Shown here piece after piece: positions 14,515 to 60,456 of a stretch of DNA of 64,000 nt. Every line of letters begins with the position of its first letter. Position 1 is the stretch's first letter. The DNA is taken from the sequence record OL770107; one strand, 5' to 3'. The notes below the pieces were generated by a model. It had not been told where the DNA came from, did no database searches, and was given only the letters and a program-made list of their open reading frames with translations. A program made the position numbers and the translations under genes. This DNA is from Escherichia phage CLB_P2.

Positions 14515-14530
14515 GTTATTGATTTATAAT

Positions 14531-14556
14531 GGGAAGACTTCGGTCTTCCCTTTTTT
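14531..14556 (+). terminator. rho-independent terminator after gene 32
   Basis: GGGAAGAC-TTCG-GTCTTCCC followed by TTTTTT. Confidence 0.7.
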
Positions 14557-14567
14557 GGCATTTAATG

Positions 14568-14596
14568 GTTTACAATGCCTTTAAACATGATACTAT
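14568..14596 (+). promoter_or_regulatory. early promoter cassette (PeSL-like)
   Basis: GTTTAC, 17 nt, TACTAT, then conserved TAGACC..CATGAGGAAATAAAAATG leader with GAGGA RBS. Confidence 0.5.
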
Positions 14597-15644: not shown

Positions 15645-15673
15645 GTTTACAAGGTCTGTAGATATGATACTAT
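15645..15673 (+). promoter_or_regulatory. early promoter cassette (PeSL-like)
   Basis: GTTTAC, 17 nt, TACTAT, leader ..CTATCAACTAATGAGGAAAATAAAATG. Confidence 0.5.
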
Positions 15674-30314: not shown

Positions 30315-30667
30315 AATCGAGGAGCCGTCGAACTGTCTGATTAATGATTTGCGAATCATTATAGTTTTAAGACCCCGGCAGTTTTACGGTGTACCTCTTG
30401 AATGTTATTTTATAGCGGCAAGTGCATGCTACCCCGAGGTGATGGCCAATCGGGAGTACGCCTCAAGGCCTATATACCCATCAGTATATATCTTATCCTC
30501 GAGAAATCGAACCCGGAACCTTTAAGCTAACGGTGTGCAACAGATAAGAGCTATGATGACGAGGTTTATGGTTATCCTGTCGTTAAATATCCGAAACCTA
30601 TGTTCCCCTTGAGGGCTTGCGCAGGCAACGCCAATAAGTCCTGCATTCTAATTTAAGAGATTTAAAA

Positions 30668-56187: not shown

Positions 56188-56218
56188 TAAAGGGACCTTA
56201 CGGTCCCTTTTATTTTTC
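56188..56218. terminator. bidirectional terminator between rnlB and the head gene operon
   Basis: AGGGACC-TTAC-GGTCCCT flanked by A- and T-runs. Confidence 0.6.
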
Positions 56219-57490
56219 TAGTGGTGGAAGTTTAACACCGAGATAAGAACTCAACTGACTTTGATTAGCCATTTTGTCCATATCCGAACCATCAATAATG
56301 CGAGCTTCTTTATCGTCCTTAGCGACGGTATAAGGGTTTGCAGTCAATGCATAACGAGCAAGCAATGCTACTGTAGGTTGTAAGCTTTCCGGGTCAACAA
56401 TAACCTTAAATTCACCTACTGAAGTATCACCTTCTTCATCAACCACATCCAAACCTTCCGTATAAGGCGCATAATATAAAGATGCGACCGTCTGTCCTTC
56501 ACCCATCTGAGCATTTACACCAACAATAACATAATCACATGGACTATTCATATCGGCATAAAGAGGTAGACCATTCTTTAATACACCATAAGCCAATTCA
56601 TCTTGGTCTTCCTTTTTCTCAACCCAACCGGAAGCGGCGAGAATAGCAGCACAACGAGAACTAGCTACTGCATAAGTCCCAGCGAAAGAAGTTTGACGTT
56701 GGACGGCAGAGTTCATCTCACACATGTAATAATATAATGTACGAGCACGGTCCTGGGCATTATCATAACGTGGGTTAGTAAGGTCCAATACGCCCTTTTC
56801 AGAAACACCTTGGACTTTAAAACGAGAACTCACCGTAATTAATGACTGTAATACGTCCTTATTAATTTCTTCTGCCATTTGAATGCCTAGCAGATTTTCA
56901 ATGAAATTAGGAGCATTAAATCCGTTTGATTCTAGGTCTTGGGCCAATTCGACTGTCAACGAAGTTTTCAGTTTACGTGATTTAACTTCAGATTGCCATT
57001 TGTCAATACGGAAGCCTGCTTCAGCAATTTCAGGATGGCCTTGTTCGAATTTAGAAGTAATAGCAGCATCTGATACCATACGAATATGTCCGGCCGCCAC
57101 TGCTTCAGAAATAACTTCACCGAGGTCGGTTTCCGTGGTTCCGGCGAAAGGAGATGCTTCTAGAACTTTAAACACTACACTTTCAAACTGGAACATATCG
57201 CCGGCTGCATAAGCTGTAGACGAATCGGTAAATTCAGGAATATTTTCACGTTCCGACATACCAATCTGACCTGCAAATGTGGCGCCACCAAGATAAGTCA
57301 TTTTGTCGTCAGGATTAAGTACACGAACCCCGTACAGAGCGGCCACAGGTTGGCTTGTTTTTTGTTCAGCAACTAGGGCTTTAAAGATTCGTTTATTAGT
57401 TGCTTGGGTGTATGAAAGAAGAGCAGGACGGCCAACCGAGTTGGCAGCCGTCAATGTGGATTCTTTAATTAGGTCTATAATCTTAGACAT
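56210..57490 (-). CDS. gp24-like head vertex protein, diverged paralog
   Basis: 426 aa; about half of positions shared with the upstream gp24, incl. RKLKTSLTVELAQDLESNGF, INKDVLQSLITVS, YAPYTEGLD and LTANPYTVAKDDKEARIID. Confidence 0.8.
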   Translation of the reverse strand: MSKIIDLIKESTLTAANSVGRPALLSYTQATNKRIFKALVAEQKTSQPVAALYGVRVLNPDDKMTYLGGATFAGQIGMSERENIPEFTDSSTAYAAGDMFQFESVVFKVLEASPFAGTTETDLGEVISEAVAAGHIRMVSDAAITSKFEQGHPEIAEAGFRIDKWQSEVKSRKLKTSLTVELAQDLESNGFNAPNFIENLLGIQMAEEINKDVLQSLITVSSRFKVQGVSEKGVLDLTNPRYDNAQDRARTLYYYMCEMNSAVQRQTSFAGTYAVASSRCAAILAASGWVEKKEDQDELAYGVLKNGLPLYADMNSPCDYVIVGVNAQMGEGQTVASLYYAPYTEGLDVVDEEGDTSVGEFKVIVDPESLQPTVALLARYALTANPYTVAKDDKEARIIDGSDMDKMANQSQLSSYLGVKLPPLEK

Positions 57491-58773
57491 TAATCAGCCT
57501 CGTAAATAATTGCTGGAAGTTTAACACCAAGCAGATAGGACATATTACTCTGACCGGCCATTAAATCCATATTGGTTGCATCGATAACACGAGCTTCTTT
57601 ATCGTCTTTAGCTACGGTGTACGGGTTAGCGGACAGTGCATAACGAACCATCAGAGAAATAGAAGGCTGTAATGAATCCGGGTCGACAATAACCTTATAA
57701 GCACCAACGTGTTCTTGGTCGTCTAAATCCAGGCCTTCTGTATATGGGGCGTAGAAAATAGAACCGACAACTTCATTACCACCATAGTTCTCTTTAACAC
57801 CTACGATAACATAATCCAATGGGCTGTTAACGTCGCAGAACAGAGGTAATCCATTCAACAAATAACCATAGGCCGTTTCTGGGAGCCAATTATTATCTTC
57901 AGGTCTATGTTTTAACCAGCCAGAACCTGCAAGCATTGCAGCCACACGACTTGAAGCCACAACAAACGTACCTGAATAAGAAGTAGTTTTCTGGATTTCA
58001 GAATTCATCTCACAAACAATTTCATAAAGTTTACGTGCAGATTCTGGAGCACTATCATAAGTCAAATCGATGATGCCATTATCAGATACACCCGTAACTT
58101 TATAGCGTTTGGATACGGTTATTAGAGATTGCAGAACATCTTTATTAATTTCATCTGCCATTACCGTAGCCAGGAGGTCTTCTAAGAATGCAGGGGCGTC
58201 GAAGCCATTTGATTCCATATCCTGTGCTAATTCTACGGTCAAAGCAGTCTTCAATTTACGGGTCTTAACAGGGGCATTCCATTTATTAACCTGGAATACA
58301 GCATCAGAGATTTCTACATCACTCTCTTCAAATTTAGTGGTATGGGCTGCATCAGGAACCAAACGACACGTTAATGACACCAAACCTTCTTGAAGAGCAT
58401 CGGCCAATTCTGTAGCGCTAGTGGATGCGAGTGGGCTTGCTTGAAGAGCCTTATAAACCACATTCTGATACTTAAAGTAGTCACCCTTGGCAATCGCCTG
58501 GGCTTTATCTGTGAGTTCCGGGATAGTTTCACGGTCTTTAGAACCAACTTCACCACCATAAACTGCACCGGTTTGGAAACTGAATTCATTATCAGGGGTA
58601 AGATATTTGACACCATACAACGCAGCGATAGGTTGGTTTGTACGTTGTTCAGCGATGATATCGCGATAAATTAGTTTAGTGGTAGCACGGGTCAAAGCAA
58701 CAAGATTAGGGCGACCCAATGAGTTGCTGGTAGTAGTTGTTGACTCGCGCAGTAATTCGTTAATCTTTGCCAT
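57490..58773 (-). CDS. 24: head vertex protein gp24
   Basis: 427-aa ORF (T4 gp24 427 aa); N-terminus MAKINELLRESTTTTSNSLGRPNLVALTRATTKLIY nearly identical to T4 gp24. Confidence 0.9.
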   Translation of the reverse strand: MAKINELLRESTTTTSNSLGRPNLVALTRATTKLIYRDIIAEQRTNQPIAALYGVKYLTPDNEFSFQTGAVYGGEVGSKDRETIPELTDKAQAIAKGDYFKYQNVVYKALQASPLASTSATELADALQEGLVSLTCRLVPDAAHTTKFEESDVEISDAVFQVNKWNAPVKTRKLKTALTVELAQDMESNGFDAPAFLEDLLATVMADEINKDVLQSLITVSKRYKVTGVSDNGIIDLTYDSAPESARKLYEIVCEMNSEIQKTTSYSGTFVVASSRVAAMLAGSGWLKHRPEDNNWLPETAYGYLLNGLPLFCDVNSPLDYVIVGVKENYGGNEVVGSIFYAPYTEGLDLDDQEHVGAYKVIVDPDSLQPSISLMVRYALSANPYTVAKDDKEARVIDATNMDLMAGQSNMSYLLGVKLPAIIYEAD

Positions 58774-58801
58774 TGCGCTTTCCTTATTGAGGGTATATGT
58801 T

Positions 58802-58809
58802 TATTTATA
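58802..58809 (-). promoter_or_regulatory. late promoter core TATAAATA for gene 24
   Basis: Minus-strand TTTTATAAATAAAC about 30 nt upstream of gp24 start. Confidence 0.5.
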
Positions 58810-58815
58810 AAAGTT

Positions 58816-58845
58816 GTTTACAGCAAGGTTCCCACGTGTTACTAT
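58816..58845 (+). promoter_or_regulatory. early-promoter-like element pointing antisense into gene 23
   Basis: Plus-strand GTTTAC, 18 nt, TACTAT, followed by the hairpin at 58863-58880. Confidence 0.35.
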
Positions 58846-58862
58846 AGTACAGAAACAAGAAT

Positions 58863-58880
58863 GGGAGACCGAAGTCTCCC
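58863..58880 (-). terminator. hairpin terminator after gene 23
   Basis: GGGAGAC-TTCG-GTCTCCC on the minus strand followed by ATTCTTGTTTCTG. Confidence 0.5.
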
Positions 58881-58896
58881 ATAATAAGGTTAGGTC

Positions 58897-60456
58897 TTAG
58901 ATACCTTTAACATAAACGCGACGGAAGTAACCATTCAGACCGAGGCTGTTAACGATGTCCGGCATACCATTCTGAATACGTTTGGTAGGTGCCTGAGCAG
59001 CTGGGTCAGCGAACGGGTTAATACCGATACCGTAACGAGTTTTGAAGCCCATTACCGGCTGGAAGTTCTTCGGATCGGAACCGCGCAGTGGGGTCAGTGC
59101 AACGTAAGGGGCGTAGTAGATACCTGCGTCCATTTCGTTGGAACCTTTATAACCGATGGTGAAGTAATCAGCACGGGCATACTGGTCGATGTAAACGCGA
59201 TATTTACCACCAAGAACACCGGCAAATACTGCTTTAGTGGTGTCAACGTTGAAACCTTGACCCAGACCTTGAGCTGCATAACTTACAGAAGTATCAACTG
59301 CAGCCAGTACGTTAACTACGTTACGGGAAGCGATGATGAAGTTACCAGCACCACGACCGGTCTGACGAGCGATTTCGGCTGCTTCTTTATCAATCTGGAA
59401 CAGAAGGGCTTTAAAGCTCTCACCGGCCCAACGAGCACCACGGATATCGATCGGGTCCTGGAAGTCAAACACACCAGCTTTAGCGCCAACGGTGTTGGTC
59501 ATACCAGATTTACCAACCTGTGCAGAGTAGTTAATCCAATCAATAACTTCACGGTTGATTTCGAGCATAATTTCGGTAGCAAGGATACCGGACAGTTCAG
59601 CATCTGCATCCATACCGTGTACTGCACGAAGGTCCTGTGCCAGTTCGATGGAGTAGCTTGCTTTCAGCTGACGGGATTTAGCTTCGATAACTTGTTTATC
59701 GATACGGAAGCCCATTTCGTTCCACGGGTTGTCCTGAGAACCGTTAAAGCCTTCCTGAAGTTCAGCGATAGAAGTAGCCATACCTTCAGCCAATTCAGCC
59801 AGCTGACCAGCTTCCAACAGAGCGGTTACGGCAACATCCAGTTTAGCAGCATCGGTAGCAGCAGCATCAACGGTTACGGCTTCAACAGCCTGGAAGTGTG
59901 CAGAACCGGTAGCTTCGAAGAAGTGAGAATAAATTTTACCAACTTCCAGAACTTTACCTGCAGCCAGTGCTTCAAAAGTCTGAGCAGCACCCTGACCAGA
60001 GAACATAGCATTCGGAGCATACATCGGGTGGAAAGCTTCTTTAGCGCCAGCAGCGATAGGGTCTTTACCGTATACTGCGCGCAGTGCAAATACCTGGCCG
60101 GTAGGGTTATTCAGAGGCTGAACACCACAAATATCAAAAGCAATCAGATGAGGAATAGCACGACGAACCATACCCATTACTGCCGGCCCAATCTGAGTTA
60201 CAGCACCAGAGGTCTGGCCAGCTGCGATATTGGTAGCATCATAACCGTGGTCACCACCGATTTCAGCTTCAGTCAGGAAAGAACCAAATGCTTCGGAGAT
60301 TTTTTCGTCACGATATTCAGGAGCGGTCAGAATATCTTGTTCCTGGTTTTCAAAGATTTTAGCGATGATAGCTTGTTTAGAAGCACCAACGATTTCAGGA
60401 AGAGCTTCGTTTTCCAGCAGAGCGGACCATTTTTGTACTAATGCATTCTTTTTCAT
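58897..60456 (-). CDS. 23: major capsid protein gp23
   Basis: 519 aa; long identical stretches to T4 gp23 (IIAKIFENQE, GGDHGYDATNIAAGQTSGAVTQIGPAVMGMVRRAIP, QLKASYSIELAQDLRAVHGMDADAELSGILATEIMLEINREV). Confidence 0.95.
   Translation of the reverse strand: MKKNALVQKWSALLENEALPEIVGASKQAIIAKIFENQEQDILTAPEYRDEKISEAFGSFLTEAEIGGDHGYDATNIAAGQTSGAVTQIGPAVMGMVRRAIPHLIAFDICGVQPLNNPTGQVFALRAVYGKDPIAAGAKEAFHPMYAPNAMFSGQGAAQTFEALAAGKVLEVGKIYSHFFEATGSAHFQAVEAVTVDAAATDAAKLDVAVTALLEAGQLAELAEGMATSIAELQEGFNGSQDNPWNEMGFRIDKQVIEAKSRQLKASYSIELAQDLRAVHGMDADAELSGILATEIMLEINREVIDWINYSAQVGKSGMTNTVGAKAGVFDFQDPIDIRGARWAGESFKALLFQIDKEAAEIARQTGRGAGNFIIASRNVVNVLAAVDTSVSYAAQGLGQGFNVDTTKAVFAGVLGGKYRVYIDQYARADYFTIGYKGSNEMDAGIYYAPYVALTPLRGSDPKNFQPVMGFKTRYGIGINPFADPAAQAPTKRIQNGMPDIVNSLGLNGYFRRVYVKGI

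Follow-up and report, generated by a model that had tools for sequence, protein, structure and literature searches.

A promoter-only allele in the gene 23-24 spacer of dhaeg-like phages: a probable remnant of an early-strand cassette lost by microhomology deletion

In this work, we analyzed the spacer between the capsid genes 23 and 24 in a stretch of 64,000 nucleotides of Escherichia phage CLB_P2 (OL770107; hereafter, the window). Our results indicate that this spacer most probably carries three independent signals, namely the terminator of gene 23, the late promoter of gene 24 and an early-type promoter on the + strand, and that the last of these would be what remains of an early-strand cassette after a 294-bp deletion. 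According to this explanation, to which as a whole we assign a probability of about 0.82, the presence of an orphan early promoter beside a terminator would reflect normal wear of the genome at an insertion hot spot already known, and not a new antisense regulator. The region studied is 100% identical to that of Escherichia phage dhaeg (MN850609.1; Dhakavirus, Tevenvirinae, T4-like), by whose name we refer to this allele; window positions equal MN850609.1 positions minus 2737.

The − strand carries the late genes, and late transcription proceeds from right to left, through gene 23 and then gene 24, the + strand being the early strand. Gene 23 (58897..60456, − strand), assigned from the ORF list and the MN850609.1 annotation, encodes the major head protein, and the C-terminal 200 aa of gp23 are 87% identical to T4 gp23. 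The downstream late gene 24 (57490..58773, − strand; ORF list) encodes the head vertex protein ("precursor of head vertex subunit" in the MN850609.1 annotation) and is the first of two tandem paralogues. These gene coordinates leave a spacer of 123 nt (58774..58896), the length given in the first-pass annotation; the positions it gave for the promoter motifs and for the hairpin were also borne out, as was its statement that the promoter points into gene 23 on the opposite strand, since a + strand promoter at this place faces the 3' end of the − strand gene. By direct reading of the sequence, a T4-type late promoter of gene 24, TATAAATA, lies at 58809..58802 on the − strand, within the interval of the first-pass annotation but not mentioned there, at the right place for gene 24 and back-to-back with the early-type promoter, and a TATTTAT(A/C/T) match occupies the same relative place in 31/31 T4-like spacers surveyed. 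As to the gene 24 paralogues themselves (56210-57490 and 57490-58773, − strand), their N-terminal 200 aa are ~51% identical, and the duplication is common to Dhakavirus-like loci, the copies being labelled 24a/24b in IME08 and JS10.

The + strand promoter is composed of the −35 element GTTTAC (58816..58821), an 18-nt spacer and the −10 element TACTAT (58840..58845), which the preceding TGT (58837-58839) turns into an extended −10 (58837..58845) according to both the sequence and a promoter scan. Promoter geometry predicts a transcription start at 58851..58853, 6-8 nt past the −10; if +1 is placed at 58852, the −35 element spans −36..−31 and a UP-like A-run (58809..58812, + strand), overlapping the late promoter, spans −43..−40. 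The extended −10, the A-run and the late-strand loop and tail of the hairpin (see below) are additions to the first-pass annotation. The T4 early consensus has GTTTAC at −36 to −31, frequently with an A-rich tract at −40 to −44 (PMC1524935), and T4 early promoters have been described as being of the UP/−35/TGn/−10 type (PMC2988021). Read as TTTACA-17-TACTAT, the element also fits TTTACW-N17-TAYWAT, the consensus of the T4/PST promoters of PeSL cassettes (PMC4122927), and a generic sigma-70 scan picks the same site (9/12 with TG). In the window as a whole, the pattern GTTTAC-N17/18-TANNNT was found at 12 sites when 2.04 ± 1.25 were expected (0/100 shuffles reached 12); 11 of the 12 are on the + strand and most of them are followed by a Shine-Dalgarno sequence and an ATG. 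TGn-TACTAT is furthermore the −10 of five of the nine other GTTTAC early-type promoters of the window. Taking together the −35, the extended −10, the A-tract and the location on the early-gene strand, the element at 58816-58845 is, by every sequence criterion tested, a T4-type early promoter and not a chance match.

A MotA-dependent middle promoter was also considered and discarded. The MotA box consensus is (a/t)(a/t)(a/t)TGCTTtA, located 11-13 nt upstream of the −10 (PMC1524935); CAGCAAG (58821-58827) stands where it would sit, and there is no box at −30. Elsewhere in the window, a family of + strand early promoters at 14568, 15645, 15932, 23677, 27599, 31324 and 39778 shares the form GTTTAC-N14/15-TGn-TAYTAT-AGACCTATCAAC...GAGGA...ATG. 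In addition, a weaker promoter-like sequence, TTTTAC-N15-TGT-TATTTT, was observed at 30382-30470 (+ strand), followed by 50 nt that fold at −15.7 kcal/mol; ARAGORN detected no tRNA between 29500 and 31500.

The hairpin next to the promoter, formed on the + strand by GGGAGAC (58863-58869), CGAA (58870-58873) and GTCTCCC (58874-58880), is read here as the terminator of gene 23, unrelated to the nearby promoter. On the late strand, the terminator scan, folding and conservation delimit it as AUGGGAGAC-UUCG-GUCUCCCAU (58861..58882, − strand), a stem of 9 bp with 5 GC pairs that starts 14 nt past the gene 23 stop codon and runs into the U-rich tail TCTTGTTTCT (58851..58860, − strand; terminator scan). 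The fold is worth approximately −15 kcal/mol (z ~−3.3) on either strand, −15.3 kcal/mol on the + strand, and the scan called a terminator on the − strand only (ATGGGAGAC-TTCG-GTCTCCCAT and then TCTTGTTTCT). The + strand face has a CGAA loop and the tail AUAAUAAGGU, with no U-tract; the scan called no + strand terminator at the hairpin, where the tail reads ATAATAAGGT. The reading as gene 23 terminator is based on the presence of a G+C-rich perfect hairpin after the gene 23 stop in 31/31 genomes of the T4-like survey, with compensatory changes in the stem. Counts made on fixed-register hairpin sequences gave 13 distinct variants, in all of which stem pairs 1-7 are paired (13/13), with compensatory double changes at five positions, and the late-strand tail is T-rich in every one (6-9 T of 12). 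Among the 31 genomes the late-strand loop is UUCG in 22, GCAA in four and GAAA in one, that is, UUCG or GNRA in 27. The T4 counterpart is GGGAACC-UUCG-GGUUCCC, followed by UUUUUUCUAUUUU. The UUCG tetraloop, which is exceptionally stable, was first noticed in T4 mRNA (PMC4371310), and the dhaeg hairpin resembles the C(UUCG)G terminators of T4 in its G+C-rich stem, the UUCG loop closed by a C-G pair, the U-rich tail and its position directly after a highly expressed late gene; the only unusual trait of the dhaeg site is the chance closeness to an opposite-strand promoter. A scan of 58600-59100 against Rfam (E<=1) matched no RNA family, the sole hit being a sub-threshold one to the terminator-like end of the PhrS model (15.7 bits for a gathering score of 37, E 0.11). 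The mini-ORF ATGGGAGACCGAAGTCTCCCATAA (58861-58884) was dismissed as coding, as it has no ribosome-binding site and is merely hairpin sequence.

The relationship between the two signals becomes apparent when dhaeg is compared with its sister phages. In JS10, the closest relative outside the dhaeg group (flanks 97.8% identical), an identical promoter and hairpin flank an ORF of 88 aa on the + strand; in IME08, this ORF is followed by segD, a GIY-YIG homing endonuclease gene; in T4, segD occupies the site alone, in the same orientation. Base-by-base comparison in two registers showed that dhaeg equals JS10 minus exactly 294 bp (2049-2342 of locus L002), with identity over 58640-58847 in the left register and over 58848-58895 in the right one (100% over 58640-58895) and a junction at 58844..58847 that consists of a 4-nt microhomology, ATAG. 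The missing block comprises the leader AGACCTATCAAAAC, a GAGGAG ribosome-binding site and the 88-aa ORF through its stop codon. The suggestion in the first-pass annotation that the promoter might be a relic of a lost cassette is therefore strongly supported. Searches with a 74-nt query across the junction showed it to be contiguous only in dhaeg, dhabil and CLBP2 among the records covering at least 80% of the query; the other 37 such records were split, and every split hit listed spans 368-369 nt, i.e. ~294 nt more. No exact match to the junction was found in IMG/VR or JGI metagenome contigs. The three carriers are 99.9-100% identical to one another in the region, too similar for retention of the promoter to be informative about selection or decay.

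A deletion, and not an insertion, is the best reading of this difference, on the grounds of parsimony, microhomology and the truncated leader. The JS10 promoter is followed by AGACCTATCAA..GAGGAG..ATG, the stereotyped leader of other early promoters in the window, whereas in dhaeg the promoter-leader-SD unit is cut 2 nt past the −10. The ORF is carried by the nearest relative, JS10, and by all more distant Dhakavirus records. The junction microhomology is that expected for illegitimate recombination, and deletions between short chance homologies next to PeSL elements have been discussed before (PMC4122927). Finally, the empty sites without promoter described below indicate that the promoter does not form part of the basal spacer. 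In the dhaeg/dhabil/CLBP2 lineage, illegitimate recombination between two ATAG tetranucleotides would have removed the 294 bp that begin 2 nt past the −10 and end with the small ORF's stop codon, and the core promoter, itself intact, would thereby have been joined to the stretch that immediately precedes the gene 23 terminator.

The distribution of the promoter was surveyed in the 23-24 spacers of 30 further T4-like genomes (IMG/VR loci L006-L035 and T4), besides dhaeg. Fourteen of the 30 spacers are occupied by a small ORF, by the small ORF plus segD, by a segD-like GIY-YIG gene alone or by an ORF of ~500 aa, and in 14/14 an early-strand promoter-like element lies immediately behind the late promoter: a full −35/−10 pair in nine, GTTTAC with a weaker −10 in three and an extended −10 only in two. 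The inserts are always on the early strand and have their own promoter. No promoter was found in any of the other 16 empty spacers (77-121 nt), in which the complement of the U-tract and the hairpin follow within ~10-20 nt of the late promoter; L015 and L016 have the hairpin and pre-hairpin sequence of dhaeg minus precisely the promoter block of ~36 nt. Of the 31 spacers, only that of dhaeg is empty and yet has a complete promoter, and the site exists in at least five states (empty; promoter only; small ORF; small ORF plus segD; segD alone or the ~500-aa ORF). As judged from these sequences, the spacer is an insertion hot spot for early-strand cassettes in T4-like phages and, given the promoter-like elements in 14/14 occupied spacers and their absence from the 16 other empty ones, the promoter belongs to the mobile early-strand cassette and not to the basal spacer. 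In the otherwise empty 96-nt spacer of L014, comparison with L011 and L018 reveals a TTTTACA remnant, TTGTTTTACA, directly after the late promoter and with no −10; this has the look of a further cassette loss, independent of that in dhaeg and with other breakpoints, similar to the "half PeSL" of Comeau et al. 2014.

Regarding the cassette genes, the small ORF (88 aa in JS10) matches phrog_6003 only and is found in 120 phage records; neither Pfam nor NCBIfam gave a significant match, and the window contained no paralogue of it; its residues 1-72 are 100% identical in many Tequatrovirus-like genomes. In L024, a genome of 155,101 bp from another genus, the small ORF and segD are preceded by a closely similar promoter and by a leader identical to that of the Dhakavirus phages IME08 and IME341, although its gp24 is only 68% identical to that of dhaeg and the flanking capsid genes are far more diverged than the cassette. 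Near-identical ORF and leader sequences across genera, next to such diverged flanks, suggest that the cassette spreads horizontally, possibly by homing. The ORFs of ~500 aa (L033, L034) gave only a weak DUF7487 match and contain an ELD-x-YI...EYNG-x-YWH motif that recalls nuclease domains.

The T4 segD locus offers the closest comparison. We found that segD is preceded there by TTTACA-17-TGA-TATTAT (10/12 + TG; 4754-4782 of L005, NC_000866.4, − strand, record ~107,253-107,281), a promoter-like site back-to-back with the late promoter of gene 24 and equivalent in position to the promoter of dhaeg and JS10. T4 and dhaeg share the site, the orientation, the back-to-back late gene 24 promoter and the promoter type, as well as a C(UUCG)G terminator hairpin after gene 23 whose stem differs between them by compensatory changes; dhaeg differs in having neither segD nor the small ORF, only the promoter being left. 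The promoter of T4 segD is itself not an established feature, since a review from 2010 stated that no segD-specific promoter could be found and assumed vanishingly low transcripts, while reporting intrinsic terminators on both sides of the gene (PMC2988022). The site described here contradicts that statement and agrees with time-resolved RNA-seq, in which segD RNA was classed as early and the protein was detectable from early time points (PMC9697503 supplements). A T4 dRNA-seq study reported 150 start sites (bioRxiv 10.1101/2024.04.04.588121), and segD is not mentioned in the DksA RNA-seq paper.

The promoter-early stem-loop (PeSL) cassettes of T4-like phages (Arbiol et al. 2010, PMC2839356; Comeau et al. 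2014, PMC4122927), degraded examples of which have already been described next to indels (PMC4122927), are a second point of comparison. The dhaeg site resembles them in its AT-rich upstream tract, its consensus sigma-70-type promoter and the indel between close relatives (294 bp with respect to JS10), and the Shine-Dalgarno sequence and small ORFan start codon that follow a PeSL promoter, deleted in dhaeg, are present in JS10 and IME08. It differs in lying within a conserved block of structural genes instead of a hyperplastic region, in having lost the gene and leader and no part of the promoter, and in that the neighbouring hairpin is the late-strand terminator of gene 23, with no stem-loop before or over the promoter on the promoter's own strand. 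The first-pass annotation had seen here the same promoter-plus-stem-loop layout as upstream of the small early ORFs of the window, which does not hold: those ORFs do have PeSL-type elements, but there, as in published PeSL (PMC2839356, PMC4122927), the stem-loop precedes the promoter or encloses its −10 on the promoter's strand, while the one in question is downstream and built for the opposite strand, and all 31 relatives have it, even the 16 other empty sites where no promoter is found. At 15645, 15932, 23677, 27599 and 31324, stem arms in the spacer and leader enclose the −10 (−14 to −18.6 kcal/mol), and these stems constitute a PeSL subclass. The stretch 14520-14567 (+ strand) carries a C(UUCG)G terminator, GGGAAGAC-TTCG-GTCTTCCC followed by TTTTTT, just upstream of the 14568 promoter, so that 14520-14568 shows the classical PeSL order of terminator and then promoter on the early strand. 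For the orphan promoter, we found no stem-loop upstream of it or over it on the same strand (folding of the 60 nt before it yields only −5.8 kcal/mol) and no −10-bracketing stem in the spacer-to-leader region. The fold downstream of it is strong (−15.3 kcal/mol at 58816, versus 0 to −5.8 kcal/mol for nine other GTTTAC promoters), and what folds there is the gene 23 terminator brought beside the promoter by the deletion. As far as sequence features go, the dhaeg element is a truncated PeSL-like cassette, with the promoter and AT-tract in place and the stem-loop and SD/ORF absent.

Other interpretations of the site were weighed against the loss of a cassette. That the hexamers match by chance and there is no promoter at all is, in our judgement, the least probable of them. 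Consensus scans in AT-rich phage DNA do yield false positives, and a local scan of 1.6 kb found two sites when 3.0 were expected; against this, the early-type pattern is enriched six-fold and strand-biased in the window, besides TGn and the −40 A-run, the site has a −10 found in five further early-type promoters, the same block lies directly upstream of a Shine-Dalgarno-bearing ORF in dozens of relatives, and T4 has an equivalent 10/12 + TG site before segD, whose RNA is early. Only slightly less improbable is that the dhaeg arrangement is ancestral and that the small ORF was later inserted between promoter and hairpin in JS10-like phages. Sequence comparison alone cannot orient the indel, and a site with five occupancy states clearly receives insertions, but the insertion would have had to land exactly 2 nt past the −10 and bring with it the leader usual for this promoter type (AGACCTATCAA..GAGGAG). 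Moreover, the ORF-bearing state is that of JS10 and of all more distant Dhakavirus records, the ORF with its own promoter is also found in another genus (L024), empty sites elsewhere have no promoter, and the microhomology at the junction is typical of deletions.

The remaining alternatives concern what the promoter would produce. It is about as improbable as the ancestral arrangement that the hairpin also terminates + strand transcription, the orphan promoter then yielding only an RNA of ~30 nt: the hairpin is equally stable on the + strand, and T-runs on both sides of the hairpin in L015, L017, L033 and L034 suggest bidirectional terminators, but in dhaeg the + strand tail has no U-tract, no terminator was called on that strand and a CGAA loop is not particularly stable. 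The promoter would have a reason to be kept if it made a cis-antisense RNA able to pair with the mRNA of gene 23, or to hinder late transcription of that gene, and so to tune capsid synthesis; its four consensus elements, all present and aimed into gene 23, the likely read-through past a hairpin without + strand U-tract and the 22 antisense start sites reported by dRNA-seq in T4 (bioRxiv 10.1101/2024.04.04.588121) speak for such a role. We nevertheless consider this role very unlikely, if marginally less so than the previous two. The promoter appears only alongside a cassette gene in the other T4-like spacers (0/16 empty ones), and the orphan state is known from just three near-identical genomes. 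What the RNA would overlap is the 3' end of gene 23, and neither the 5' UTR nor the ribosome-binding site of that gene. This last point also corrects the first-pass annotation, which had proposed that an early antisense RNA might cross the beginning of the capsid transcript: as gene 23 runs from 60456 to 58897, a + strand RNA from ~58852 would enter its 3' end and terminator, with the gene start another 1.6 kb away. Gene 23 of T4 is, in addition, transcribed only late. Early promoters, for their part, are shut off within a few minutes (PMC2988021). The early shut-off, the late expression of gene 23 and the lack of any cassette-free relative with the promoter make a dedicated regulatory role unlikely, and the two properties by which a cis-antisense regulator was judged here, conservation apart from the cassette and overlap with the 5' UTR or start, were both absent. 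It is very doubtful that the promoters of the 23-24 cassettes, the dhaeg orphan included, give rise early to an antisense RNA that spans the terminator and the 3' coding part of gene 23 and has a function, and that the promoter is retained in dhaeg for this reason. If they did, such an RNA might delay or damp capsid-protein expression, or prime or mark the site for cassette homing.

Under the preferred reading, that of a cassette lost by deletion, host sigma-70 polymerase probably still initiates near 58852 in the first minutes of infection, although initiation could be weakened or shifted, as the deletion replaced the native start-site region. The resulting RNA would have no ribosome-binding site or ORF, its sole ATG (58861) being part of the hairpin. 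With no U-tract behind the hairpin on the + strand, polymerase would pass it and enter the 3' end of gene 23 in antisense direction, to be halted by Rho or by a fortuitous terminator; the terminator scan marks a + strand terminator-like site at 59109-59131. This RNA, made before gene 23 is transcribed, would be a by-product that serves no function of its own. In T4, late regions are known from the literature of the 1970s to undergo early "anti-late" (antisense) transcription. The dhaeg site resembles this case in that read-through from a promoter on the early strand would give RNA antisense to a late gene; it differs in that conservation of the promoter goes hand in hand with cassette genes and the transcript is a predicted one.

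The main value of these results lies in annotation and method: promoter-like and hairpin-like signals that are adjacent can serve opposite strands and belong to unrelated units, and comparison with sister genomes resolves which signal belongs to which unit. A by-product of wider interest is the early-type promoter before T4 segD, a gene reviewed as lacking a promoter of its own. For the T4-like phages, the dhaeg spacer provides a clean, base-exact case of gene loss by microhomology deletion in the 23-24 insertion hot spot, and its natural promoter-only allele might be used as a control in studies of early transcription that enters a late gene in antisense.
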